Of a stretch of 32,000 nt of DNA, positions 1-29,109 are shown one piece after another. Position numbers and translations under genes: made by a program. The stretch spans positions 990,001 through 1,022,000 of the forward strand of contig NC_009483.1 of assembly GCF_000016745.1 (NCBI RefSeq), read 5' to 3'. Each line of letters opens with the position of its first letter. Positions within the stretch are counted from its first letter, which is position 1. The notes beneath the pieces are model-generated. The model was not told where the DNA came from and ran no database searches. It worked only from the letters and a program-made list of their open reading frames with translations. The stretch is from Geotalea uraniireducens Rf4 (GTDB lineage Bacteria > Desulfobacterota > Desulfuromonadia > Geobacterales > Geobacteraceae).

Positions 1-1
1 A

Positions 2-586
2 ATGCCTACCAAGAGCGCCATTGCCGGTATGTGCTGCGCCGCGCTCGGTTTTCTGCGTGGTTGTGACAAGGAACAGGAGTTCTTGGTTGCGTTCGGTGCT
101 GTGCGAATGACCGCCATTGCCATTCCTCGCAATGGTGCAAAAAAGGAACTGCCGGTTCGACGGTTGCAGGATTATCACACAGTTCAGAATACGAGACGGG
201 CGAGCGGTGCGATTAACAACGATTGCGTACTGACTCACAGGCAATACCTGACTGATGCTGCTTTCGGCGTGCTACTGGAAGGCGATTCAACACTGCTCAA
301 GCAGATTGCAGCTGCTTTGGAAAATCCGGTCTGGGGAGTCTGGCTCGGACGTAAGACCTGCATCCCCACTGCACCGGTTTTGGCCGGTTTACGGGAAAAT
401 CGAGATGAAGCGTTGAAGCTGCTTCTCAAAGATAAACCGCTTGAATCGTTTGCCAGGCAGGAAGATGTGGAGAGCTTTGCCGATGGCCGAGACAGCCTTC
501 CTGATATGCCAGTGTCGTTTGCAACAGAGCGACGGATATTTTCACCAAGAAGGGTTCGAACGCTACAAGGAACAGATCGACCCTGA
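2..586 (+). CDS. cas5e: Cas5e (CasD) Cascade subunit, 5' end cut by the window edge
   Basis: The translated ORF carries CasD-like motifs (PTKS..G....ALG, LQDYHTV, RQYLTDA, LGRKTC). It lies upstream of cas1e/cas2e and a I-E type array. Confidence 0.8.
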   Translation: MPTKSAIAGMCCAALGFLRGCDKEQEFLVAFGAVRMTAIAIPRNGAKKELPVRRLQDYHTVQNTRRASGAINNDCVLTHRQYLTDAAFGVLLEGDSTLLKQIAAALENPVWGVWLGRKTCIPTAPVLAGLRENRDEALKLLLKDKPLESFARQEDVESFADGRDSLPDMPVSFATERRIFSPRRVRTLQGTDRP

Positions 587-640
587 TGCGCCAAAGGCTT
601 CGGCTGCGGCCTCATGCTGGTGCGGCGGGTGTAAAATCAG

Positions 641-718
641 AAACGGGCGGGGAGACCCCGCCCCTACAATGGACGTGGAAAGCGGGCGGCCATTTGGGGC
701 CGCCCCTATGGAATCGGG
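641..718. repeat. Two tandem ~38-bp units, each with a GC-rich hairpin (GGGCGGGG-aga-CCCCGCCC and GGGCGGCC-n6-GGCCGCCC) followed by CTA(C)(A)ATGGA
   Basis: Direct reading. Stems at 645-663 and 684-705. Located between the convergent cas5e and mazF-like genes, so a likely bidirectional terminator or REP-like pair. Confidence 0.6.
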
Positions 719-751
719 CACGAAACAGAAGCGAACCTTGTTCGCCTCTGT

Positions 752-1096
752 TCACAACAACCCAAGTACCCCTTTGAGGCTGTGCTCCACCGCCGCCATC
801 TCTTCCGTGGTGAGGCTGGTCAGGGGGCCGTCCCCGAAGCGGTCTTTGTCGAGGGCGCGGGGTTGATCAACGACCACCTGGCATGGTTTGAGAAGCCGGT
901 CGCGTGGCTCGACCATGATGCGCCATCGTTTGAAGGAGGGATAGACCTGTGTGGTAAGTGGCAGGATAACGACCATCGGTGTGCCGCTTGCCGTGAGGGC
1001 GTTGTCCTGGATAACCAGAACCGGCCGGATCTTGCCAATTTCCCGCCCTCGGCCAGGATTGAGGTTGGCGGCCCAAATCTCGCCGCGGCGCATCAT
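752..1096 (-). CDS. MazF/PemK-family type II toxin (endoribonuclease)
   Basis: RGEIW..NLNP..G.E..K.RP.LVIQ motif pattern typical of PemK/MazF. The ATG at 1096 overlaps the upstream antitoxin stop as ATGA. An alternative GTG start lies at 1105. Confidence 0.8.
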   Translation of the reverse strand: MMRRGEIWAANLNPGRGREIGKIRPVLVIQDNALTASGTPMVVILPLTTQVYPSFKRWRIMVEPRDRLLKPCQVVVDQPRALDKDRFGDGPLTSLTTEEMAAVEHSLKGVLGLL

Positions 1097-1410
1097 TTCC
1101 ACCACTTTTCGGCTGGCTGGGTGGCGCGGGAGCCGCCCGGTTTGCGACCCTCGGTGATATCCAGCGCTTCGTTGCTGGTGACCATGCCTTCTTCGGCTAT
1201 TTCAAGAGCCGTACGGCGGATGGACTCGTCAGCATAGGCGGTGTGTGCCTCGGCCACCAGTTCGGCCATGAATCGCTCCCGCTCGCGACGTGCAAGATAA
1301 TCAACGATAGCGATTCGTACCACCTCGGAGCGTGGCAGCTGTTCAAGGCGGGCCTCGTCTTCCAAACGGTGATCCAGGTCTTCCGGCAGTCGCAGGCTTA
1401 GCGCGGGCAT
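1093..1410 (-). CDS. Ribbon-helix-helix (CopG-like) antitoxin
   Basis: The N-terminus MPALSLRLPEDLDHRLEDEA....RSEVVRIAI is RHH-like. GGAGG lies 6 nt upstream of the ATG at 1410. 4-nt overlap with the toxin gene. Confidence 0.75.
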   Translation of the reverse strand: MPALSLRLPEDLDHRLEDEARLEQLPRSEVVRIAIVDYLARRERERFMAELVAEAHTAYADESIRRTALEIAEEGMVTSNEALDITEGRKPGGSRATQPAEKWWK

Positions 1411-1479
1411 AATTGGCCTCCATGTATTGCATAATGTTATACGAAATGTATCGCAATCTGTCGGATTCGTCAATATTTT

Positions 1480-1551
1480 ATGAGTTTTATGAGTTTTATG
1501 AGTTTTATGGGTTACATGAGTTACATGAGTTACATGAGTTACATGAGTTTT
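1480..1551 (+). repeat. Tandem nonamer array, 8 units (ATGAGTTTT x3, ATGGGTTAC, ATGAGTTAC x3, ATGAGTTTT)
   Basis: Counted directly with strict 9-bp period. Ends 14 bp upstream of the ATG at 1566. Confidence 0.95.
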
Positions 1552-1565
1552 ATGGGGGGCGTAGA

Positions 1566-1934
1566 ATGTCTAAAATTGAGCGATTTGAGGAAATACAGGC
1601 TTGGCAGAAGGCGCGGTTGTTGGTCAAAGAGGTCTATTCCATCAGCAATACCGGCGGGTTTGTCAAGGATTTCGGTCTTCGTGATCAGATACGGCGAGCA
1701 GCGGTATCAATCATGCTCAATATCGCGGAAGGATTTGCCAGAAAGACGAACAAGGAATTCATTCAATACCTTGTCATTGCTCATGGATCAGCTGCTGAAG
1801 TGCAGGCAGCACTTTATGTTGCATTTGATCAGGAATATTTGAGCGAGGCGGAATTCGATAAGCTATACGGCTCGGCGGACAATACATCAAAAATGGTACT
1901 TGGATTCATCAACTACCTAAGAAAAGCGCAATAA
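1566..1934 (+). CDS. Four-helix-bundle protein (23S rRNA intervening-sequence protein family, Avd-like)
   Basis: 122-aa product with the family pattern F....AW.KA..L...VY........D..L..QI.RAA.SI..NIAEG......KEF..YL.IA.GS..E......A. The ATG at 1566 is chosen because upstream codons of the tracked ORF are just translated repeats. Confidence 0.8.
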   Translation: MSKIERFEEIQAWQKARLLVKEVYSISNTGGFVKDFGLRDQIRRAAVSIMLNIAEGFARKTNKEFIQYLVIAHGSAAEVQAALYVAFDQEYLSEAEFDKLYGSADNTSKMVLGFINYLRKAQ

Positions 1935-1936
1935 TT

Positions 1937-2062
1937 CATAGAACACAATGAACTCAACAAACTCATAGAACCTATAGAACCCATAGAACCCATAGAACCC
2001 ATAGAACCCATAGAACCCATAGAACCCATAGAACCCATAGAACCCATAGAACCCATAGAACC
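1937..2062 (+). repeat. Tandem nonamer array, 14 units (3 degenerate, then CATAGAACC, TATAGAACC, CATAGAACC x9)
   Basis: Counted directly. Starts 3 bp after the stop at 1934 and ends 12 bp before the cas1 ATG. The reverse complement reads ATGGGTTCT, the same family as 1480-1551 but inverted. Confidence 0.95.
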
Positions 2063-2074
2063 GGAGTCCAACCC

Positions 2075-2998
2075 ATGACCGAACCAATCCTCCCCCCATT
2101 GAAGCCGCTCCCCATCAAGGACCGCATCTCGGTCGTTTACGTGGAACGGGGCAACCTGGATGTCCTTGACGGCGCCTTTGTGGTCGTGGACAAGACCGGC
2201 GTCCGCACCCATATCCCCATCGGCGGGGTGGCCTGCCTGATGCTGGAGCCGGGGGCGCGGGTTTCCCACTCTGCCGTGGTGCTGGCGGCGCGGGTCGGGT
2301 GTCTGCTGGTCTGGATCGGCGAGGCCGGGGTGCGCATGTATGCCGCCGGTCAGCCGGGGGGTGCCCGGGCCGACCGGCTTTTGTACCAGGCAAAGCTGGC
2401 CCTGGACGATACATCGCGGCTGAAGGTGGTGCGCAAGATGTACGCGATCCGCTTCCAGGAGGAGCCGCCGGAGCGGCGCAGTGTGGACCAGTTGCGCGGT
2501 ATCGAGGGGGTGCGGGTACGGAAAATGTACGAGCTGCTGGCCCGGCAGCATGGGGTGGAGTGGCAGCGCCGCAATTATGATCACAGCGAATGGGGGAGCG
2601 GCGATGTGCCCAATCGCTGCCTTTCTTCGGCCACCGCCTGCCTGTACGGCATCTGTGAGGCGGCCATCCTGGCGGCAGGGTACGCCCCTGCGATCGGTTT
2701 CATCCACACCGGCAAGCCCCAGTCATTTGTCTACGACGTGGCCGATATTTTCAAATTCGAGACGGTGGTCCCGGTGGCGTTTCGTATCGCCGCCAGGCAG
2801 CCCCGCAACCCGGAACGCGAGGTGCGGCTGGCCTGCCGGGATGCCTTCCGTCAATCCAAGCTGCTGCAGCGGATCATTCCTACAATCGAGCAGGTGCTGG
2901 CGGCTGGCGGGCTGGAGGTGCCGAAGGCCCATGAAGAGGCGGTAGTGCCCGCCATTCCAAACAAGGAGGGCCTTGGTGATCCGGGGCAAAGAGTTTGA
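2075..2998 (+). CDS. cas1: Cas1e integrase
   Basis: 307-aa ORF with Cas1e-like N-terminus (PLKP.PIKDR.S..Y.E.G.L.V.DGAFV) and length. Context is cas5e upstream, cas2e and a I-E array downstream. Confidence 0.85.
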   Translation: MTEPILPPLKPLPIKDRISVVYVERGNLDVLDGAFVVVDKTGVRTHIPIGGVACLMLEPGARVSHSAVVLAARVGCLLVWIGEAGVRMYAAGQPGGARADRLLYQAKLALDDTSRLKVVRKMYAIRFQEEPPERRSVDQLRGIEGVRVRKMYELLARQHGVEWQRRNYDHSEWGSGDVPNRCLSSATACLYGICEAAILAAGYAPAIGFIHTGKPQSFVYDVADIFKFETVVPVAFRIAARQPRNPEREVRLACRDAFRQSKLLQRIIPTIEQVLAAGGLEVPKAHEEAVVPAIPNKEGLGDPGQRV

Positions 2999-3060
2999 GG
3001 GTTTGATGAGTTTGATGAGTTTGATGGGTTTGATGGGTTTGATGCAGTCAACTCATATAA
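2999..3060 (+). repeat. Left arm of a nonamer dyad (GGGTTTGAT / GAGTTTGAT x5, then GCAGTCAAC, TCATATAA)
   Basis: Counted directly. Read in phase, the units are ATGRGTTTG, the same family as 1480-1551. The arm is interrupted by the IS at 3061. Confidence 0.9.
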
Positions 3061-4616
3061 CTCAACTTTCGCAGCTGGTAAATATATGTAACATATTGTA
3101 ATTATTAATAGTATAGCGTCGCAATCTGGGTTAAAATGGCTTTGTTCCCCAACAAATCCACTAGCACAGAGAGACGACGCTATGCAGCAGATTGTAGCAG
3201 GATTTGCATCCGTAGAAAACCGGATTCATTCGTTCTTTCACAATCAGAACCTCGGCCAGTTACTTCGGCAAAGCAATGTCAGGAAGGAAAAGGGCGTTAG
3301 CCTCGACACCTTGTTCCAGCTTTTGCTTTCCCTTGCCTTTACCGGAAAAAATCTGTTCCGTCTCCTGGAGAGTCCAGATTCACCGGATGGTATCGGTAAA
3401 GACACTGCGTATCGGCTGTTGAACTCGGTCAATGCCAACTGGCGCCGTTTTCTGTTGCTGCTCAGCACGCGGGTCATTGTCCAAAGGCTTCTCCCGCTGA
3501 CCGATGAGACGACCACCAAGGTGCTGATCGCTGACGACACTCTGTATCGTCGCGACCGCAGCAAGCGGGTCGAACTGCTGGCACGGGTGCATGACCACAA
3601 CACCGGTCGTTACGTGCGTGGCTTCAGGATGCTCACCCTGGGGTGGTCCGATGGGAACAGCTTTGTACCCATGATGCTGTCGATGCTCAGCTCTGCCAAG
3701 GATAAGAACCGCCTTGCCCCAATGCGTGAGGGCATCGATAAGCGCACCAACGGATATCAGCGCCGCCGGGAGAGCATGAGGAAATCCACCGACGTACTGG
3801 TGGACATGGTTGCCTTGGCAATGAAGGCAGGAACCACTGCCCGGCACCTGCTCTTTGACAGCTGGTTTGCTTTCCCCGCCACCATCAGGCGGATCCGCGC
3901 CCTGGGGATGCATACCATCTGCATGCTCAAGGATACGGGTAAGGTCACCTACGAGGTGCAGGGGTGGCCGTTCACCCTGAAAGAACTATTCAAAGAGGTC
4001 CGCAAGCGACCCGGTCGAGCCAAAGTGTTGGCAGAGGTGCTGGTGACCATAGGTCAAGACATTCACGGTAAACCGGTGGCAGCAAAGATCGTGTTCGTCC
4101 GCGACCGCAGTTCGAAGAAATGGCTGGCGCTCCTTTCCACCGATACGACCTTGACCGCCGAGGAGATCATCACGCTCTACGGCCGTCGCTGGGACATCGA
4201 GGTGTTCTTCAAAATGGCCAAGTCGTTTCTGAATCTGGCAAAGGAGTTCCAGAGTCGTTCCTTCGATGCTCTGGTCGCCCACGCCACACTGGTCTGCTGC
4301 CGCTACATTCTGCTTGAGCTGGTGAAACGGGAAAATGCTGATCCTCGAACTCTTGGCAGCCTGTTTCACGCTCTATGCGATGAAATAAGACGAATTGGCT
4401 TCACAGAAGCAATGGCACTGTTGCTCACATTTCTGGAAGAATCACTCAACAGCATTATTGGATTGTGCAAAGAGCAGGTGCAACAACTGATACAACGCTT
4501 TATAGAAACACTACCAAGAGCTTTCAGGGAGCGAATGCTACTTTTGGCCCCGGTATGCAGCTAAACCATATATCTGTCAACTAGTTACGGCCAATCTCGC
4601 TAGTGCGAAAGTTGAG
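3061..4616 (+). mobile_element. IS4-family insertion sequence, 1556 bp
   Basis: 13-bp terminal inverted repeats: CTCAACTTTCGCA at 3061-3073 and TGCGAAAGTTGAG at 4604-4616. Flanked by the direct repeat TCATATAA at 3053-3060 and 4617-4624; boundaries are ambiguous by 1 bp (9-bp TSD TCATATAAC with 12-bp IR is also possible). Single transposase ORF inside. Confidence 0.85.
3182..4564 (+). CDS. IS4-family DDE transposase
   Basis: Candidate DDE residues (LIADDT, LLFDSWF) and the Y-(2)-R-(3)-E-(6)-K signature in YGRRWDIEVFFKMAK. Confidence 0.85.
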   Translation: MQQIVAGFASVENRIHSFFHNQNLGQLLRQSNVRKEKGVSLDTLFQLLLSLAFTGKNLFRLLESPDSPDGIGKDTAYRLLNSVNANWRRFLLLLSTRVIVQRLLPLTDETTTKVLIADDTLYRRDRSKRVELLARVHDHNTGRYVRGFRMLTLGWSDGNSFVPMMLSMLSSAKDKNRLAPMREGIDKRTNGYQRRRESMRKSTDVLVDMVALAMKAGTTARHLLFDSWFAFPATIRRIRALGMHTICMLKDTGKVTYEVQGWPFTLKELFKEVRKRPGRAKVLAEVLVTIGQDIHGKPVAAKIVFVRDRSSKKWLALLSTDTTLTAEEIITLYGRRWDIEVFFKMAKSFLNLAKEFQSRSFDALVAHATLVCCRYILLELVKRENADPRTLGSLFHALCDEIRRIGFTEAMALLLTFLEESLNSIIGLCKEQVQQLIQRFIETLPRAFRERMLLLAPVCS

Positions 4617-4978
<362 letters not shown>

Positions 4979-5046
4979 AGGGTGAAAAAATCGGTGGAAT
5001 TTATGCAGTTGAATTTGCTTAATGATTTTGAGGAAGTAGAGGAAGT
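4979..5046 (+). promoter_or_regulatory. CRISPR leader (short, AT-richer)
   Basis: 68-bp AT-rich segment between the cas2 stop and the first repeat. The degenerate repeat sits at the opposite end of the array, which places the leader here. Confidence 0.6.
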
Positions 5047-6844
5047 CTGTTCCCCGCACGAGCGGGGATGAACCGTTGTTTTAGCATGTGTAATCACCTT
5101 CTCGTCACTGTTCCCCGCACGAGCGGGGATGAACCGGTGCAAGTGGTGAAGAACATCTGGAAATGGAACTGTTCCCCGCACGAGCGGGGATGAACCGACC
5201 TGTGCGGGATGCAGTGGCCTGTGCCTTGTCTGTTCCCCGCACGAGCGGGGATGAACCGACGTTGGTCTTTGCAGTTCTTTCTGGCCAACACTGTTCCCCG
5301 CACGAGCGGGGATGAACCGGCCGGCCGTCTTCTGGGTGACGAGAAAATACTCTGTTCCCCGCACGAGCGGGGATGAACCGGCATGGAGTCGTTGCGGACA
5401 GCCGCCGACAGGCTGTTCCCCGCACGAGCGGGGATGAACCGGAATGCTATTTCTTTTTTTCCTTTCCGAGAAACTGTTCCCCGCACGAGCGGGGATGAAC
5501 CGATGATCTGTCTGATGCGGAAATCCCGCAGGAACTGTTCCCCGCACGAGCGGGGATGAACCGATTTAGTCTCTCCTGCAGCAAATGTCCCGGAGCTGTT
5601 CCCCGCACGAGCGGGGATGAACCGACGCGCCCGCCCGACATGACTGAGAAAAACGTCTGTTCCCCGCACGAGCGGGGATGAACCGAACGACCGCAATTTC
5701 CAAGTAGGGGATGAACTCTGTTCCCCGCACGAGCGGGGATGAACCGGTGGTTCGCCGGTTTAACAAGCGCTCGGACTCCTGTTCCCCGCACGAGCGGGGA
5801 TGAACCGCATGGAGCACAGCGAAGAAGCATTAATCGACACTGTTCCCCGCACGAGCGGGGATGAACCTCAGAATATGGAGATAGCCATGATGAGACAGAC
5901 CTGTTCCCCGCACGAGCGGGGATGAACCGCCACACATTGTTTTCGACATAGCGGGCATGAGCTGTTCCCCGCACGAGCGGGGATGAACCGAACCCGGTCG
6001 TCATGATAGGCATGGAGGACATCTGTTCCCCGCACGAGCGGGGATGAACCGGTTCCCCTGTGTCCCCAGGGTTTGCTTCATTGCTGTTCCCCGCACGAGC
6101 GGGGATGAACCGTTTGATTATATCTTGTTCTGCCATGCACTGATCTGTTCCCCGCACGAGCGGGGATGAACCAGGAGACAAACCATGAACGCAAAAAATC
6201 AAATCCTGTTCCCCGCACGAGCGGGGATGAACCGTGCGGTGTGTGGTGCCCGGTGGTCTGTCAATACTGTTCCCCGCACGAGCGGGGATGAACCGGGACC
6301 GCGGCGAGCCGATTACCCCGGATGAGCCTGTTCCCCGCACGAGCGGGGATGAACCGAGTCTGCGGCGGCGGATCGTGCTGTACGTGAACTGTTCCCCGCA
6401 CGAGCGGGGATGAACCGTCGGATCGCCGTACGCTCCGGTGCCGGTTAATCTGTTCCCCGCACGAGCGGGGATGAACCGGCTGACGGGCGGGGTTTCGTCC
6501 CCGTCCAGCCCTGTTCCCCGCACGAGCGGGGATGAACCGGGCGGGGTAATTGATTGGCAAGATGAAGAGCTCTGTTCCTCGCACGAGCGGGGATGAACCG
6601 AGTTCTCCTCCAGCGATTTGCTGGCGGAGGCACTGTTCCCCGCACGAGCGGGGATGAACCGTCTGCGGGGCTCTACCTTGGATATTTCCGTATCTGTTCC
6701 CCGCACGAGCGGGGATGAACCGCCGGGCGGGTGCGCTTTGTCGTTATAATGTTTCTGTTCCCCGCACGAGCGGGGATGAACCGCGCGCCCGCTGGCCGTG
6801 GAACGCGGATCGTTGCTGTTCCCCGCACGAGCGGGGATGAATCG
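5047..6844 (+). CRISPR. Type I-E CRISPR array, 30 repeats and 29 spacers
   Basis: 29-bp repeat CTGTTCCCCGCACGAGCGGGGATGAACCG, close to the E. coli I-E repeat and with the same CCCCGC/GCGGGG stem. Every repeat start checked by hand falls on an exact 61-bp period from 5047 to 6816. Variants: last base T (repeat at 5840), last base A (6145), C8T (6572), terminal repeat AATCG (6816). Confidence 0.97.
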
Positions 6845-8152: not shown

Positions 8153-8171
8153 AACAACCTGTAATATTGAC

Positions 8172-8283
8172 CGCCGACCGCCGACTGCCGACTGCCGACC
8201 ATCGACTATCGACCATCGACTATCGACCATCGACTATCGACCATCGACTATCGACCATCGACTATCGACCATCGACTATCGAC
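8172..8283 (-). repeat. Tandem heptamer array, 16 units (CGCCGAC x2, TGCCGAC x2, then CATCGAC/TATCGAC alternating x6)
   Basis: Counted directly, 112 bp, strict 7-bp period. Lies between two co-directional minus-strand genes. In mRNA sense it reads GTCGATA/GTCGATG ... GTCGGCA, GTCGGCG. Confidence 0.95.
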
Positions 8284-8289
8284 CGGTTT

Positions 8290-13479: not shown

Positions 13480-14545
13480 GGCTAGGGGGACGTAGTTGAT
13501 TTGTTGATTTGCTCTTCAACGCCACCCCATTTACCTGAATTCTGAGCTAGCAATGCGGCACCTCGGGATGCTCCCCTGCAAACTCCGGAACGGGTGATGC
13601 CCAATGCTTTTGCCACGGTTTCACCGCTGTAACCTATCCTGCGTGCGGCCAGATAGCAGATAATACTTTTTGCGTCAGATATCAGTGCTCCTCTCCGACG
13701 TTGCCCTAACGCTTCCGGCTCAACATCGGCCACCTCCGCGACGAGTGTTACTAACTGGGCCAGAGGCATTCGCAAATCCAGTCTTTCGGAAACTTCTTTT
13801 TCCTGTTTCAACTGCTCTACGAATTCGGCGCGGCCGAGTATTCGGTCATCGTATGCTGTGATCAGCTCACCGCCGACTAATTTCAGCACCCGCTTGAGGC
13901 CGCCACCCACAAGTTCCTCTCTCCGCCCCAACGTAATCCCGTCTGCAACGAACGACTGATATTTTTCCTGCGCCAATTTTTTCCGCTGTCCGAAATACCG
14001 CAGCACTTCTTCCACATTTTGTCCCGGCATTTCCCGTCGGCCCATCAAAACTGCATGACCACTCCATGGATATTCATTCAGCTCAACGGTGTCCTTGACG
14101 ATGCCGGCACGCAAAGGATTAAGGTGAATGTACCGAACCAGTTCGAGAAGATAAGGGTCTTCCTCGCAGATGATCGACTTGTAACGGTTCTGGAACAGAT
14201 GGCCACTACGGTGGTGGCGCAAATTGAATGTGACGGCATAGCCTGTCAACAGTCGCCGCATGAGGTGTCCAAGCTTTCCTTGCGTTGGACGCAAAAGCAT
14301 ATGGGCGTGGTTGGTTAAAAACGACCAGGCAAGGCATTCTGTTCCAGTTTGTATCAGCAGGCTGGAAAAGCGATCCAAAAATGATTGCCGGTCATCATCG
14401 TCCAGAAAAATATCTCGTCGTTCAACTCCTCTGACGATCACGTGCTGGAGGACTCCGGGTATGTCAAGGCGTGCGGCTCGTGGCATGATGTCCAATATAC
14501 ACGATCTTGATGCTAAGTCAACAAATCAACTACGTCCCCCTAGCC
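13480..14545 (-). mobile_element. RAYT-like (HUH-Y1) element bounded by perfect 28-bp inverted repeats
   Basis: 13480-13507 (GGCTAGGGGGACGTAGTTGATTTGTTGA) is the exact reverse complement of 14518-14545. A single ORF fills the interior. Confidence 0.8.
13482..14495 (-). CDS. IS200-like/REP-associated Y1 tyrosine transposase with a C-terminal DnaA-domain-IV-like HTH
   Basis: HUH motif in TNHAHMLL, catalytic Tyr context GHLFQNRYKS, and a C-terminal segment (ISDAKSIICYLAARRIGYSGETVAKALGITRSGV) resembling the DnaA C-terminal HTH. The stop codon lies inside the left inverted repeat. Confidence 0.75.
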   Translation of the reverse strand: MDIMPRAARLDIPGVLQHVIVRGVERRDIFLDDDDRQSFLDRFSSLLIQTGTECLAWSFLTNHAHMLLRPTQGKLGHLMRRLLTGYAVTFNLRHHRSGHLFQNRYKSIICEEDPYLLELVRYIHLNPLRAGIVKDTVELNEYPWSGHAVLMGRREMPGQNVEEVLRYFGQRKKLAQEKYQSFVADGITLGRREELVGGGLKRVLKLVGGELITAYDDRILGRAEFVEQLKQEKEVSERLDLRMPLAQLVTLVAEVADVEPEALGQRRRGALISDAKSIICYLAARRIGYSGETVAKALGITRSGVCRGASRGAALLAQNSGKWGGVEEQINKSTTSP

Positions 14546-14562
14546 CGCGTCCCCCTAGCCCG

Positions 14563-15213
14563 TCCAAGCCACTTGCGAAGAATCTCACGATCCATGGGAA
14601 TGTTACTCATCAGCCAGTTCTGGCAGATATTGTCGTAACACCCCGTGATATCCGCTTCTAATACCCATGGTGCTGAGTTCGGTTTGCTCAGTGCGTTGAA
14701 AGCTGCGGCGGTGGCGTCGGCGCACCTGCGGCCTTCCCGGAATCCATAGGAATTGCCGTCAGCCGTGGTTTCCGCCACCGGAGCCAGCGCCTGCTTGTAC
14801 AGCGCCTGCATGGCCCGATCCAGCATGGTGGGTATTGATAACGGTCGTTTCTTCCCGTTCTTCTTCGGGATGTAGATTCTTCTCAGTGGTTGCGGCTTAT
14901 AGCCACGTCGGCGCAGGCTGCATGCAGCGCGCCATCTGGCTTTGGCGGTTTTCCAGAGAATTCCGTCAACGCCAGGGGTTTTCTTGCCTTTATTCGAAGT
15001 CACTCGTTTTACTGCCAACAGCTTGGCGTGGAACGAGCGGGTCAGCAGGTGTTGCAGGGCTCTCACCCTGTTCCACCGGTTTTCCAGCACAGCCTTTGCG
15101 ATACGGATTTGCAGCCTCCTGACTTCGCGGCGGGCGGTCTTCCAATCAACCTTGCCCCATGTTCCGCTCTTGCCTCTGGGCGCACCGGCCGGAGCCGTCT
15201 TTTGCTTTCCCAT
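14563..15213 (-). pseudogene. Group II intron reverse transcriptase, C-terminally truncated
   Basis: TPGVDG, RRIYIPKKNGKKRPLSIPTMLDRAMQ and SYGFREGR motifs (RT domains 0-4). No RT5 (YADD), maturase or En domain. Confidence 0.8.
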
Positions 15214-15747
15214 CTACAGAGGTTCTCCAAATGATCTCGCAACGGAACACCAGTCGGACGTGGGCGCGCCATTTCGCCGAGGGGATGGAAGGATGTTCCC
15301 CGGTTTTAACGCGAGCCATGTTTCATGCTCTATCCACCCTGTTACCGGGCGGCATTTGCTTTTTCCGACCTCTTACTTTCGCCCCTCCATCTGTCTGCCT
15401 TGCGGTCGGCTTGCCATGTATCGCGTTCATGGCGGAGTGACGACTTTTCCACGTTCCGCGTGATTATCTTAACGGACAACTTAGGTGCGGTCTGAACGCC
15501 GGTGGCTCAACAATCCCGTGCAGTGACGTTAATGCACTGCAACCTGGCCACGCATGTTTACGCTGGGAAACATGCATATCCCCTGATAACTCCCGTAGGG
15601 TAGAAGCCCATCTGACGGCGCGTCAACGACCATTCACTTAATTTCACCATATTGTCCTGCCCTAGCCCTTAACCGGATGGAGTTTCCGGAGGGGTTCTCC
15701 TGTCGCCATTCAAACCCGATTCGGTACATTGTCAGCGGGCTTCGCAC
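14563..15747 (-). mobile_element. Group II intron, 5' fragment (ribozyme domains I-IVa plus the N-terminal part of the RT ORF)
   Basis: The minus strand reads GTGCGAAGCCCGC from 15747, about 534 nt upstream of the RT start, the expected spacing. The RT ORF breaks off before the YADD motif at the junction with the RAYT-like element. Confidence 0.7.
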
Positions 15748-15973
15748 CAAGTACACAGCGCGTACCCAGCACGCCGCCTAGGGCGCTGAAGGGGATACTT
15801 CAGGTGCTTGATAGATAAAACAATAACAATATCAAGTACATATAATCACGCGACATCGTGTCGCGAATAACGGTTCGGGAGATCACCTGACAGCTTCTTG
15901 GTCAGGTGCATCTTCCTTGTTGGGTTGTTGACCCTCATCTTCCCTTCGCATGCTCTTCCTCCCGGGTCCGTTT

Positions 15974-17827: not shown

Positions 17828-18919
17828 TCACTGTTTTGTCGTTATTGTCCGTGCCCTTCCTTGCGGCGGGCTTCTCGCTTTACGCGGCAGCCAGCTGATT
17901 ATCACCATTGTCCCCTCTTCACAGCAGGGACAGCGGCGCTCTGCCGGTGGCGGAGAAGTCTCTTCGTTCTTTTCTTCTTTTGTCTTTCTTCTCTCTGCAA
18001 GCAGGAGCTGCAACCGTTTCAGGGTTACTCTATTTCCTGGACTTAAAAGTCCGTAGTAGCGGACCTTGTGAAACCCCTGCGGCAGGACGTGCTGCAGGTA
18101 GCGACGCAGGAACTCCTTTACCGGTAGCCGCATATTCTTCCACTCTCTGGTGTCGGAATTCTGGTAGCGGAAGACGACCTGACCGTTATCCAGGGCAAGA
18201 ATACGGTTATTGGTAATGGCGATGCGGTGGACGTATCTGCCAAGGTAATGGAACACCTTTTTTGCCCGGTTGAAGGTCGGTTTGCAGAAGACCACCCACT
18301 CCTTGTCCCAGACTTGCCCAGGAAAGATCACCTCGGGAAGTGCTTTTCTGGCCATCTTCATGAACCGGTAGCGAAAGCCCTTTGACAGGGCTTTCACCGG
18401 CACGAGGTACTTCTTGCGGGACTCCCGCCATTGGCCGTCTTTATCAAGTCCGCCGGCGGGGACCAGCATATGCACGTGGGGATGGTGCTCCAGAGCTCTT
18501 GTCCAGGTATGCAGGACGGCGAGGATGCCGAGTTTGCCGCCGACGAACTTGGGATCGAGTCCGATTGCGGCGAGGGTTTCCACTGCTGCCTGCATGAGGA
18601 TGGCGTAGAGTACCTTCTGGTGTTTGCGTACCGGGTCTCTCAGTTCTGACGGAAGGGTGAAGACCAGATGAAAGTAGCGTACCGGCAGGAGTTCGCCTTC
18701 TCTCTTGGTCAGCCAGAGCTTTGTTTCATTACCGTGGCATTTGGGACAGCTTCTGTTTTTGCAGGAGTGGTAGAGGTATTGTTGATGGCCGCAATCTTCA
18801 CACTCATCGACATGTCCTCCCATGCTTTCGGAAATCAGGGACATAATACGGATTATGAACACCATGTCACCCATCTTCACTGGGATTTCAGCTTGTGGAG
18901 TGATAACGGTCCAAGTCAT
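17828..18919 (-). CDS. IS91-family (HUH-Y2, rolling-circle) transposase, N-terminus possibly shortened
   Basis: Zn-finger CEDCGH....YHSCKNRSCPKCH, HUH in HHPHVHMLVP, paired tyrosines in HYLGRYVHRIAI, C-terminal CPCCE. The usual ~40-aa N-terminal segment is not recognisable. Confidence 0.8.
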   Translation of the reverse strand: MTWTVITPQAEIPVKMGDMVFIIRIMSLISESMGGHVDECEDCGHQQYLYHSCKNRSCPKCHGNETKLWLTKREGELLPVRYFHLVFTLPSELRDPVRKHQKVLYAILMQAAVETLAAIGLDPKFVGGKLGILAVLHTWTRALEHHPHVHMLVPAGGLDKDGQWRESRKKYLVPVKALSKGFRYRFMKMARKALPEVIFPGQVWDKEWVVFCKPTFNRAKKVFHYLGRYVHRIAITNNRILALDNGQVVFRYQNSDTREWKNMRLPVKEFLRRYLQHVLPQGFHKVRYYGLLSPGNRVTLKRLQLLLAERRKTKEEKNEETSPPPAERRCPCCEEGTMVIISWLPRKARSPPQGRARTITTKQ

Positions 18920-25591: not shown

Positions 25592-25675
25592 GTTCAATAG
25601 AGCCGTTCGATGTTCGAAGTTCGAAGTTCTATGTTGAAAACCTCGAACCTCGAACCTCGAACCTCGAACCTCGAA
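25592..25675 (+). repeat. Heptamer dyad: left arm GTTCAAT..GTTCGAT, GTTCGAA x2, GTTCTAT; right arm CCTCGAA x5
   Basis: Counted directly. The right arm reverse-complemented is GTTCGAG x5, the left-arm family inverted. Located between the stop at 25586 and the ATG at 25687. Confidence 0.9.
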
Positions 25676-25686
25676 CAGGTTTTAAC

Positions 25687-27885: not shown

Positions 27886-27890
27886 TAGCG

Positions 27891-28064
<174 letters not shown>

Positions 28065-28083
28065 CGATTTTAAAGGAGTTTAA

Positions 28084-29109
28084 ATGTCGGAATTACGCTG
28101 GGACCCTTTGAAGCTGCACTGGGTCATCATTGCTACGGAACGGGGGCGGCGGCCCCGTGATTTCCAGGTGGAGCAGCAAGAGGCGGAGATGACCAGCTGC
28201 CCTTTTTGTTACGGCAATGAGGACAAGACACCTGCCGAGATTTTTGCCATCCGTCCGTCCGGACCTGCCAACTCACCCAACTGGAAGGTCCGCGTCATTC
28301 CCAACAAGTATCCGGTGTTGCGCATCGAGGGCGAAATCAAGAGCAAGGGATACGGTCTTTACGATGTGATGACCGGTATCGGCGCCCATGAAGTAATCAT
28401 CGAAACGCCGCAACACGAAAAGGGGCTTGCGGATTTGTCGGTGGCGGAGGTCACCGATGTTCTCATCGCCTACCGCGCCAGGTTCCTGGACCTGCGTCGC
28501 GACAGCCGCTTCCGTTACATGGTTCTGTTCAAGAACCACGGTGTCCGGGCCGGCGCTACCCTTGCCCATTCACACAGCCAGTTGATTGCCGTGCCGCTTA
28601 CCCCTCCGGTGGCGGCAACGGAACTGAAGATCTGCCGTGATTTTTACGCCAACAAAGAGCGCTGCATATTCTGTGACTTGATAGATTTTGAGCTGACGTG
28701 CGGCGACAGGGTGGTGAAGGAATTTCCCAATTTCGTCAGCGTGACTCCCTACGCTTCCTGCTTTCCCTTTGAGTTGCGCCTTTATCCGAAAAAACACTCC
28801 CACGACTTCGCCATGATGGATGACGGCCAGTTGGCGGAACTGGCCGTAGCCATGAAGGACATGCTGTTACGACTGAAGACGGTGCTGAAGGACCCTCCCT
28901 ATAACTTCATTCTCCACTCCGCGCCGCCGCAGCAACAACGTCTCGGCAAGCCTGAATACTGGGGGTCGCTGGAATACGACTATCACTGGCATATCGAGCT
29001 GGTGCCGCGATTGACCCAAATAGCCGGATTTGAGTGGGGGACCGGCTTTTACATTAACCCGACTTCGCCGGAGGATGCCGCTCTCTTCCTCCGGGAGGCG
29101 GAGATTTAG
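28084..29109 (+). CDS. GalT-like HIT-family nucleotidyltransferase (galactose-1-phosphate uridylyltransferase family)
   Basis: LRWDPL...WV.I...R..RP, Zn-site CPFC, active-site HSHSQL. AAGGAG RBS. Confidence 0.8.
   Translation: MSELRWDPLKLHWVIIATERGRRPRDFQVEQQEAEMTSCPFCYGNEDKTPAEIFAIRPSGPANSPNWKVRVIPNKYPVLRIEGEIKSKGYGLYDVMTGIGAHEVIIETPQHEKGLADLSVAEVTDVLIAYRARFLDLRRDSRFRYMVLFKNHGVRAGATLAHSHSQLIAVPLTPPVAATELKICRDFYANKERCIFCDLIDFELTCGDRVVKEFPNFVSVTPYASCFPFELRLYPKKHSHDFAMMDDGQLAELAVAMKDMLLRLKTVLKDPPYNFILHSAPPQQQRLGKPEYWGSLEYDYHWHIELVPRLTQIAGFEWGTGFYINPTSPEDAALFLREAEI

Follow-up and report, generated by a model that had tools for sequence, protein, structure and literature searches.

A four-helix-bundle gene between inverted arrays of short tandem repeats in a cas operon of Geotalea uraniireducens, and the recurrence of this layout across the PF05635/TIGR02436 family

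Some 23S rRNA intervening sequences carry an open reading frame (ORF) for a PF05635-family protein within a terminal stem that is cut by RNase III, and these sequences have been termed selfish and horizontally acquired, with no known mobility mechanism (PMC4990558). In Coxiella the terminal stem that encloses the ORF is 28 bp long and is cleaved by RNase III in vitro, and the ORF product, S23p, is probably not synthesized in vivo (PMC4990558). A separate literature deals with short tandem repeats in operon spacers. It describes the short tandemly repeated repetitive (STRR) heptamers of Cyanobacteria, which form hairpins in operon spacers, among them that of hupS-hupL (PMC2670836); heptamers close to Nostoc start codons that affect expression via an unidentified partner (10.1101/2022.06.06.494920); TAACTGA repeats immediately ahead of start codons in Beggiatoaceae, Cyanobacteria and Bacteroidetes, for whose spread “no mechanism is evident” and whose binding protein is unknown (PMC4679880); and, in G. 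metallireducens, sets of 3-5 tandem repeats of 7-9 nt that are paired on opposite strands, have insertion sequences (ISs) nearby and were proposed as sites of a global regulator (PMC2700814). Here we describe a gene of the PF05635/TIGR02436 family in a 32-kb stretch of the Geotalea uraniireducens Rf4 genome (contig NC_009483.1; hereafter the window), where inverted, head-to-head arrays of the nonamer ATGRGTTNN bracket the 122-aa gene between cas5 and cas1. We find that this layout, a 7-9-nt array, the four-helix-bundle gene and an inverted array in an operon spacer, is a conserved module that recurs family-wide. The presence of PF05635 genes in cas loci is already known, with 18 cases reported in a study whose discussion of the family does not mention flanking arrays (PMC3936711). 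We found no description of the array-gene-inverted array layout, or of arrays around PF05635 genes, in full-text literature on the family and the repeats, a scope outside which most subscription journals fall.

The coordinates, unit counts and distances that an initial annotation of the window had given for the two arrays proved exact when compared with the sequence and with the output of Tandem Repeats Finder (Table 1). On the gene’s sense strand the left arm is G/T-rich with the core (G)AGTT. Tandem Repeats Finder delimits this array at 1476-1554 (period 9, 8.8 copies, 91% matches), and its ATG-register portion, 1480-1551, leaves 14 nt to the ATG at 1566. On the other side, the degenerate units of the right arm begin at 1937, 3 nt past the gene’s stop codon, the 11 near-perfect ATAGAACCC units span 1960-2062 (96% matches), and 12 nt separate the end of the arm from the cas1 ATG at 2075. 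The reverse complement of the right arm reads ATGGGTTCT, in the orientation opposite to that of the left arm. When we counted the double unit ATGRGTTNNATGRGTT with at most one mismatch, we found 23 occurrences in the window vs. 0.05 ± 0.22 in shuffles. All of these matches fell within the two arms or within a gene-less dyad between cas1 and cas2, those on the plus strand in left arms and those on the minus strand in right arms. The arms are 75% complementary across 81 nt, and the motif count places the cas1-cas2 dyad in the ATGRGTT unit family of the arms. The 120-codon out-of-frame ORF said to be opened by the ATGs of the left array is present as well (1480-1842). Units at other loci usually contain no ATG, so an upstream-ORF role for the eight AUGs is not general and the in-frame run is probably incidental. 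A promoter scan between the left array and the gene found nothing above chance, and since the space is also too small, we rejected a promoter of the gene’s own at that position.

To place this locus in its family we used 79 loci with relatives of the protein (42-84% identity; L numbers below), taken from a collection of one genome per species and labeled Geobacteraceae, Nitrospirota, Bacteroidota, Ignavibacteria, Chloroflexota, Planctomycetota, Acidobacteriota, Actinomycetota or, for two, archaeal bins. Oriented arrays with a period of 6-10 were called with Tandem Repeats Finder, and the near zone was defined as ≤300 nt from the gene. We observed 124 oriented arrays in the 46 kb near the gene vs. 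47 in the remaining 357 kb, an approximately 20-fold difference in density (2.7 vs. 0.13 per kb). Both arms were present in the canonical polarity, GAGTY upstream and RACTC downstream, at 43 loci, one arm at 26 and none at 10, several of which hold arrays with another core. The nearest upstream array carried GAGT on the sense strand at 55 of 58 loci, and the nearest downstream array was inverted at 51 of 54. In the core, the base after G-A-G-T is T, C or G and never A. Seventy-nine arrays had a period of 9, with 19 each at periods 8 and 7; arms had a median of 4.6 copies on both sides of the gene, and the median gap was 28 nt to the gene start and 25 nt to the stop.

The repeat units vary from locus to locus, and two cassettes within one bin can differ in both unit and period (L033/L079 and L059/L073), while the two arms of one locus agree at 85% of aligned positions (1382/1627, variable positions counted in). 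The junction “GAGTT-GGGGG-N5-8-ATG” recurs in L002, L005, L007, L008, L030 and L074, and the window and L002 have both the ATGAGTTTT unit and the GAGTT-GGGGG-ATG junction in common despite near-saturated synonymous sites. We conclude that the association between gene and arrays is not coincidental. The initial annotation had proposed to score other family members for array flanks. Such flanks are present at the 43 loci with both arms and the 26 with one, and in two distant clades besides, and none of the observations by which the annotation would have called the association coincidental was made where it could be looked for.

The distant clades are those of two relatives with solved structures, for which we used the 2GSC sequence as query for Xanthomonadales loci and the 2RLD sequence for Bacteroides loci. 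In Xanthomonas, Dokdonella, Lysobacter, Stenotrophomonas, Luteimonas and Pseudoxanthomonas, accB and accC have an orthologue of XCC0516 between them, preceded by four GGGAAT(C/G) heptamers and followed by four inverted ones (GATTCCC), which end at the accC ATG or ≤12 nt from it. The annotated start of the XCC0516-type gene (ATG or GTG) falls within unit 2 of the upstream array (L081, L084, L087, L210-L215), in the form GGGA-ATG/GTG-GAG-AAT..., so that the first ~10 residues of the protein are encoded by the array; an A-to-G unit variant in Xanthomonas is at the same time a change of the start codon from ATG to GTG. Genes of the BT_0352 clade occur between araD and araA, and also between aminotransferase and DAHP synthase genes. 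Their heptamers are AATTGAC in forward and AATTGTC in inverted orientation, arranged as [> <] gene [> <] or [>] gene [> <], and vary in copy number among strains. Because the layout recurs with other units in Xanthomonadales and Bacteroides, the array-gene-array architecture is family-wide and the unit clade-specific. We rejected one universal core motif, the cores being GAGTY in the window’s clade, GGGAATC in Xanthomonadales and AATTGAC in the Bacteroides clade. Conservation of the heptamers across Xanthomonadales genera, together with the ATGAGTTTT unit shared with L002, shows that the arrays are maintained in place and are not decaying relics.

The locus resembles the rRNA intervening sequences of Leptospira, Coxiella and Brucella with an S23p ORF in that a PF05635-family ORF lies within complementary termini and the element is predicted to sit inside a longer host transcript. 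It differs in that this transcript would be an mRNA operon, not rRNA: Rfam found rRNA neither in the window nor in any of 40 related loci (L002-L041), and an rRNA context was rejected on these grounds; nor did Rfam place any known RNA family over the arrays. Whereas Coxiella has a unique 28-bp stem, the arms here are tandem 7-9-nt units of variable copy number, and unlike Coxiella S23p, the window protein is under strong purifying selection. With the STRR, Beggiatoaceae and G. metallireducens repeats, the arrays share tandem 7-9-nt units in operon spacers, often only a few nt from a start codon, as well as frequent pairing on opposite strands, a capacity for hairpins, genome-specific units, a patchy distribution like that of horizontal gene transfer, and ISs nearby. 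Tandem 7-9-nt intergenic units near start codons and inverted hairpin sets were both found here, and GACCATC/GACTATC heptamers in the window resemble the GAC(C/T)AAT repeat upstream of Nostoc recO. Unlike STRR-type repeats, the repeats of the window bracket a specific gene in fixed polarity, and the cassette’s units are nonamers. The accessible parts of the published accounts of STRR, heptamer, TAACTGA and paired-site repeats draw no link to PF05635 genes.

Two further systems offer looser comparisons. Foldback transposons and miniature inverted-repeat transposable elements (MITEs) have long inverted termini made of short tandem repeats in variable copy number, in some cases with a central coding segment, and their gene-less copies are commoner; foldback elements are eukaryotic. 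Unlike these, the cassettes described here yielded no transposase, no convincing target-site duplication and no recent copies. TRAP, which binds (G/U)AG repeats, and the omega repressor, which binds 7-bp heptads, are small oligomers that set one subunit on each short repeat, tolerate a variable spacer and bind sites overlapping a ribosome-binding site or promoter, which results in autoregulation. By analogy only, the median of 4.6 units per arm may be compared with the pentameric state of relatives of the window protein; the folds are unrelated, and repeat binding by PF05635 proteins is here only proposed.

Table 1. Coordinates of the cassette, the neighboring cas and toxin-antitoxin genes, and further repeat arrays in the window
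Feature	Position	Strand	Description
cas5	2-586		
GC-rich stretch	~600-720		Repetitive extragenic palindrome (REP)-like palindromes, e.g., GGGCGGGGAGACCCCGCCCC; between cas5 and the MazF/RHH pair
MazF/PemK toxin	752-1105	minus	Divergent toxin-antitoxin pair 752-1410
RHH antitoxin	1093-1410	minus	Partner of the MazF/PemK toxin
Left arm	1476-1556	plus	8-9 tandem nonamers: ATGAGTTTT x3, ATGGGTTAC, ATGAGTTAC x4, ATGAGTTTT
Array-gene junction	1552-1565	plus	GGGGGG Shine-Dalgarno-like run right after the last unit, ATG 8 nt on
Four-helix-bundle gene	1566-1934	plus	122 aa plus stop
Right arm	1937-2062	plus	14 nonamers: 3 degenerate, then 11 ATAGAACCC
Spacer	2063-2074	plus	12 nt, GGAG ribosome-binding site of cas1
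cas1	2075-2998	plus	Final codons and TGA stop within the first unit of the following array
Gene-less dyad, part one	2985-3061	plus	Left arm A[AT]G[AG]GTTTG x6, 5-nt turn, right-arm start CAACTCATATAA
IS4-family insertion sequence	3062-4617	plus	DDE transposase 3182-4564; sits in the right arm of the dyad
Gene-less dyad, right-arm remainder	4618-4650	plus	ATATAACTC, AAAGAACTC x2, ATATAAC; then GGAG ribosome-binding site
cas2, CT1978 family (PF09707)	4661-4978		ATG at 4661
CRISPR array	5040-6784		
Single unpaired heptamer array	8169-8284	minus	GACCGCC / GACTGCC / GACCATC-GACTATC on the plus strand
Heptamer dyad	25598-25676	plus	GTTCGAA x4, AACCTCG x5; spacer between nucleotidyltransferase/phosphomutase gene and GH57 gene
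Heptamer dyad	27888-28073	plus	(A/G)GTCGG(A/C) x15, then GACCATC-type; spacer between GH57 gene and GalT-like gene

The assignment of the product to the Avd-like four-helix-bundle / 23S rRNA intervening-sequence protein family, made in the initial annotation, was confirmed by profile hidden Markov models (PF05635, E 1.4e-35, 122.2 bits against a cut-off of 33.8; TIGR02436, E 6.8e-33, 113.2 bits against a cut-off of 24) and by the predicted fold, an AlphaFold2 model with four helices and a predicted local distance difference test score (pLDDT) of 91.8. Foldseek aligned the model to 2GSC with template modeling (TM) scores of 0.87-0.92, to 2RLD with 0.80-0.90 and to Avd (4DWL) with 0.74-0.84; it also superposes, distantly, on Avd inside the diversity-generating retroelement (DGR) ribonucleoprotein 8UB7. 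Sequence matches of the protein include 2GSC (XCC0516) and 2RLD (BT_0352), PDB entries with five chains each, and a protein of the PF05635 family has been stated to be pentameric (PMC4990558). Residues R43, R44, S48, N52 and E55 are invariant in a 34-sequence alignment of the window’s clade, and the protein contains the helix-2 motif GxxRxxxSxxxNxxE, which Zhang et al. 2013 (PMC3936711) report as family-wide. The protein is under strong purifying selection. Between the window and its L002 orthologue we obtained a dN of 0.083 and a dS of 1.29 (dN/dS ~0.06), with synonymous sites near saturation, and in other pairs the proportions of synonymous and nonsynonymous differences were 0.6-0.88 (pS) and 0.08-0.28 (pN).

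Avd, described as a pentameric barrel in contact with “Avd-binding stem-loops” in the RNA of the DGR ribonucleoprotein (10.1101/2023.10.23.563531), belongs to the same Pfam family, and the model predicts the same fold. It differs from the window protein in sequence (~10% identity) and in charge, the window protein being near neutral with a pI of 7.9. No DGR-type reverse transcriptase adjoins the gene, whose neighbors are the toxin-antitoxin pair and cas1; the only reverse transcriptase in the window is the truncated one of a group II intron at 14530-15213. There is also no pair of template and variable repeats, as positions 1-5100 contain no direct repeats of ≥40 nt besides the arrays. With neither an adjacent reverse transcriptase nor such a repeat pair, a role as DGR component was rejected.

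No Pfam nuclease or recombinase domain was found in the protein, which is the sole ORF of the cassette. PADLOC returned no match for the cassette, and a known defense system was rejected accordingly, as was phage carriage, since no relatives of the protein were found in viral contigs. An exact-sequence look-up of the 122-aa protein with its stop codon gave no record, and the same look-up for Cas1 matched only ~1 kb contigs that break in the arrays. In L074 (3344-3492) the four-helix-bundle ORF has no stop codon ahead of the right array and reads through it, and because the 9-nt period equals three codons, the protein acquires a C-terminal (N-S-K/M/T)n tail. ORFs of 148-149 aa in L020 and L024 likewise read through the right array. 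Extensions of this kind, or start codons assigned within the upstream array, probably explain several database entries that are 135-158 aa long.

The neighboring gene was on the same strand as the four-helix-bundle gene at 65 of 71 loci upstream and at 52 of 72 downstream. As the modules lie in intra-operon spacers and mostly on the strand of their neighbors, they are most likely transcribed within polycistronic RNA. The arrays are flush with these neighbors: the first unit often contains the upstream stop codon (that of cas1, for example, in both the window and L074), and downstream start codons follow 2-13 nt past the last unit. In the cas1 lineage of the window (307-aa Cas1, CT1978-type Cas2), cassettes occur after cas5 or cas6e and ahead of cas1, between cas1 and cas2, and beside the CRISPR array; in a second lineage, with a 344-aa Cas1, they occur ahead of cas1 and between cas1 and cas2. 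Other contexts are hsdS / hsdR of type I restriction-modification systems, the V-ATPase operon, the position upstream of purE and, at 12 Bacteroidota/Ignavibacteria loci, the spacer between the genes for RidA and 3-hydroxyanthranilate dioxygenase of the kynurenine pathway.

The comparison of filled and empty sites that the initial annotation had called for reveals such a polymorphism at the cas1-cas2 junction, where related operons show three states. In L002, L004 and L014 the two genes overlap at the cas2 ATG and repeats are absent; a dyad without the gene, with an IS inside it, is found in the window; and a full cassette occupies the junction in L005 and in L030, which has an arm unit, ATGAGTTAC, identical to a unit of the window. 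L002 shares the pre-cas1 cassette (84% protein identity) yet keeps the overlap, so the dyad of the window is a later gain. In the lineage with the 344-aa Cas1, L007 has a cas1-cas2 spacer of 47 nt, and a cassette lies at this place in L008, L009, L010, L013 and L074. We found no convincing target-site duplication at the junctions compared, between lineages too diverged to define ends: at most a 3-nt GAT was shared, at the cas1-cas2 junction of the window, with nothing consistent at L005, L030 and L074. Paralogues from the same bin were 62-80% identical and no identical copies were seen; with paralogues this far apart, nothing suggests recent activity, and we rejected recent transposition.

Two features of this region were absent from the initial annotation. 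The toxin-antitoxin pair (752-1410) lies between cas5 and the left array, and the IS4-family element, 1.56 kb in length, splits the cas1-cas2 dyad and puts 1.6 kb between cas1 and cas2. The element has 19-nt terminal inverted repeats (3055-3073 and 4604-4622) and is accompanied by duplicated TCATATAA(CTCAA).

Arrays also occur without the gene. The window has one PF05635 gene, and no cognate four-helix-bundle gene was found in it for the two heptamer dyads (GTTCGAA/CGAGGTT and AGTCGGA/GGTCGAT), which lie within a glycogen-metabolism operon, or for the single array at 8169-8284, which separates two minus-strand genes and is ~17 nt away from the probable start codon of the downstream one, on its upstream side. 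As a reverse test we took 127 GAGTT(N4)x4 arrays from 120 metagenome stretches. Thirty-nine were inside long ORFs, 28 at contig ends, 50 single and non-coding, eight in gene-less dyads, and two adjoined a PF05635 gene. The gene is thus nearly always accompanied by arrays, and arrays are mostly found without the gene; the claim that arrays exist only as flanks of the gene was rejected by this test, at two of about 60. On contigs that carry a cassette, distant gene-less arrays shared the 5-mer core of that cassette in 29 of 45 cases (11.7 ± 3.6 when loci were shuffled) and both core and period in 23 of 45 (6.3 ± 2.6). Core sharing above the shuffle level shows that the repeat families are genome- or cassette-specific.

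In the minimum-free-energy fold of 1470-2075, the arrays pair with each other across the ORF (1476-1556 with 1980-2062, z = -6.75). The cas1-cas2 dyad, reconstructed to its state before IS insertion, is predicted to form a hairpin (z = -5.2), as is the dyad at 25598-25676 on both strands (z = -4.7 on the plus strand and -5.7 on the minus strand); both hairpins consist of 6-7-bp helices with small internal loops between them. The 27.9-kb dyad (27940-28086), one of three dyads tested, did not fold better than shuffles (z = -1.3).

The reading we favor, although we hold it tentatively and rate it somewhat short of an even chance, is that of an intervening-sequence-like mRNA cassette: its pentameric protein would recognize the repeats that flank its gene and in this way regulate both itself and the downstream junction. 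In the transcript, the G/U-rich 5' arm would pair with the A/C-rich 3' arm, or each flank would form a repeat hairpin of its own. Either fold could loop out the inserted ORF or insulate it from the flanking cistrons, and by analogy with the rRNA intervening sequences it may offer a double-stranded processing site of the kind that RNase III cuts there. The pentameric protein would bind the repeats with about one unit per subunit, and the protein of the Rf4 locus would be expected to prefer repeats such as (AUGAGUUAC)5 or (ATGAGTTAC)5 over core-mutated repeats. Since the last unit abuts the gene’s own ribosome-binding site, such binding would control translation of the gene itself and the processing or translation of the downstream gene. 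Gene-less arrays and dyads with the same units may represent degenerated copies of the module, additional sites that the protein binds in trans, or both. The firm result is a descriptive one and comprises the architecture with its conservation and positions, the selection on the protein, the three states of the junction and the predicted pairing. We infer that the arrays are transcribed, that RNase III processes them, that the protein binds them, and that the cassette is mobile; its spread would be rare, on an evolutionary timescale, with recombination between arrays as a possible route.

Several observations weigh against this proposal. An RNA-specific wobble bias in the arm mismatches was not found and was rejected as a signature: G-U-compatible transitions numbered 39 in the sense direction vs. 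56 in the antisense direction only, alongside 150 transversions. The arms of the window are only 75% complementary. Covariation of the Xanthomonadales arms amounts to a single replacement of A-U by G-C, by way of a G-U intermediate, plus uncompensated positions, and is confounded by the upstream array being partly coding, with the start codon in unit 2. In view of the missing G-U bias and this equivocal covariation, pairing of the arms is possible and selection at the RNA level is not demonstrated. The near-neutral pI of the proteins (5.6-8.5) is unlike that of Avd, which has been described as strongly basic, and the invariant residues, which include the family-wide helix-2 motif, cannot set unit specificity, because the repeat unit differs between clades. 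Only two of the ~60 assessable non-coding GAGTT arrays adjoin a PF05635 gene, and the repeats therefore exist largely without it. Many of the loci, indeed most, are from metagenome bins, and the taxa assigned to such bins may be incorrect.

The initial annotation had left open whether gene and arrays form an insertion cassette or the arrays are a landing pad. The family-wide flanks and the junction polymorphism support this proposal overall, with the two options indistinguishable so far. A landing pad would mean that the arrays are autonomous intercistronic repeats of the STRR or heptamer type, made and maintained by the host for transcript stability or translational coupling, and that a functionally untied gene hitch-hiked into such spacers, or from one to another, by recombination within the arrays. 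We consider this rather unlikely, even though gene-less arrays are the majority (50 single arrays and eight dyads vs. two beside the gene in the metagenome sample), four further arrays or dyads in the window accompany its one PF05635 gene, and similar unexplained repeats are documented for Nostoc, hupS-hupL (PMC2670836), Beggiatoaceae, Cyanobacteria and Bacteroidetes (PMC4679880), and G. metallireducens. Such a history would leave unexplained why it is the PF05635 family that is embedded again and again, in many clades and each time with other units, why cassettes that share a genome differ in unit and period (L033/L079, L059/L073), why array polarity is fixed, and why the last unit abuts the gene’s ribosome-binding site or holds its start codon. 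Simple coincidence, with two slippage-prone microsatellites beside an unrelated gene, has a negligible probability. Tandem repeats do expand locally by slippage, and the right arm is dominated by one unit in 11 copies where its L002 counterpart has about five degenerate units; the 23 motif pairs against 0.05 expected, the 20-fold enrichment with fixed polarity over 79 loci and the same layout in the Xanthomonas and Bacteroides clades refute this explanation.

Alternatively, the arrays could act at the level of DNA, as duplex sites such as iterons or heptad operators or as foldback-type terminal inverted repeats, with the protein as a DNA-binding or synapsis factor and the gene-less dyads as MITE-like derivatives. 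The arms behave as plain inverted DNA repeats without wobble bias, gene-less arrays far outnumber gene-flanking ones as MITEs outnumber their parent elements, and in the lineage of the window a dyad of the cassette’s own unit family arose 1 kb downstream, where the sister locus L002 has a junction without repeats. The dyad contains an inserted IS, and ISs have also been reported near the paired repeat sites of G. metallireducens (PMC2700814). We nevertheless judge a DNA-level element quite unlikely. Neither a target-site duplication nor sharp ends were found at the junctions compared, no nuclease or recombinase is recognizable, and the paralogues are old (62-80% identical) with no identical copies seen. 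Cassettes keep one site and their arrays across whole orders, which is unexpected for relic transposon ends; periods of 7, 8 and 9 bp would present a binder of duplex DNA with very different helical phasing; and a transposon would not require co-orientation with the operon.

Beyond the mRNA cassette favored above, a broader generalization is possible but doubtful: PF05635 pentamers may be sequence-specific readers of short tandem repeats, each paralogue with its own 7-9-nt unit, and thereby the factor that acts in trans on the STRR, heptamer, TAACTGA and “paired site” repeats in operon spacers of Cyanobacteria, Beggiatoaceae, Bacteroidota and Geobacter, among others. The gene with its arrays would then be the autonomous, self-regulated form, gene-less arrays its regulon or non-autonomous copies, and ORF-bearing rRNA intervening sequences the same element in rRNA. 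A small gene flanked by its own repeats would join, in one testable object, three long-separate puzzles, namely, the conserved ORF in some 23S rRNA intervening sequences, the role and binder of short tandem repeats in the operon spacers of Cyanobacteria, Beggiatoa, Bacteroidetes and Geobacter, and the multicopy “four helix bundle” / “S23” genes wedged in unrelated operons, including CRISPR-cas loci. The layout nominates a candidate repeat-binding factor, two relatives of which have crystal structures (2GSC and 2RLD). In the window, cas1 lies between the cassette and the gene-less dyad, which provide cas1 and cas2 with their ribosome-binding regions and could in this way set the expression of the adaptation genes. 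If pairing between protein and repeat were specific and paralogue-dependent, it would amount to a compact, programmable repeat-recognition module.

We also noted variation around cas1 in related operons. Two loci with a cassette at cas1-cas2, L008 and L010, have a lone inverted array of five to six AAACTCCAT units just upstream of cas1; the unit is that of the cassette’s right arm, and in L008 the array is ~1.1 kb upstream of the cassette. Its position is the one that the cassette takes in L006, L007, L011 and L015. A Bro-N/KilA-N-like ORF (AVFKGKEVRR..WWFSVVDV..) lies between the cassette and cas1 in L004 (3125-3958) and L014 (3457-4293) and just upstream of the cassette in L016 (2579-3148), and L002 has a different ORF, of 410 aa, in the corresponding spacer, upstream of the cassette. 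The cassette spacer seems to collect accessory genes. Between cas5 and cas1 there is no cas6e in the window and one in L002.

Other elements were seen farther from the cassette. In L030, a Geobacteraceae bin, six Acido-Lenti-1 RNA motifs (Rfam RF01687) on both strands flank the cas region (1219-2008 and 5050-5297). Within 13482-15804, the minus strand of the window carries a group II intron remnant that consists of a D1-D4 RNA domain (Rfam RF02012; 15665-15804) and the truncated reverse transcriptase mentioned above. Beside it, the ORF at 13482-14495 has two parts, an IS200-like Y1 transposase domain and the C-terminal helix-turn-helix of DnaA, and an IS91-type Y2 transposase is encoded at 17828-18919.

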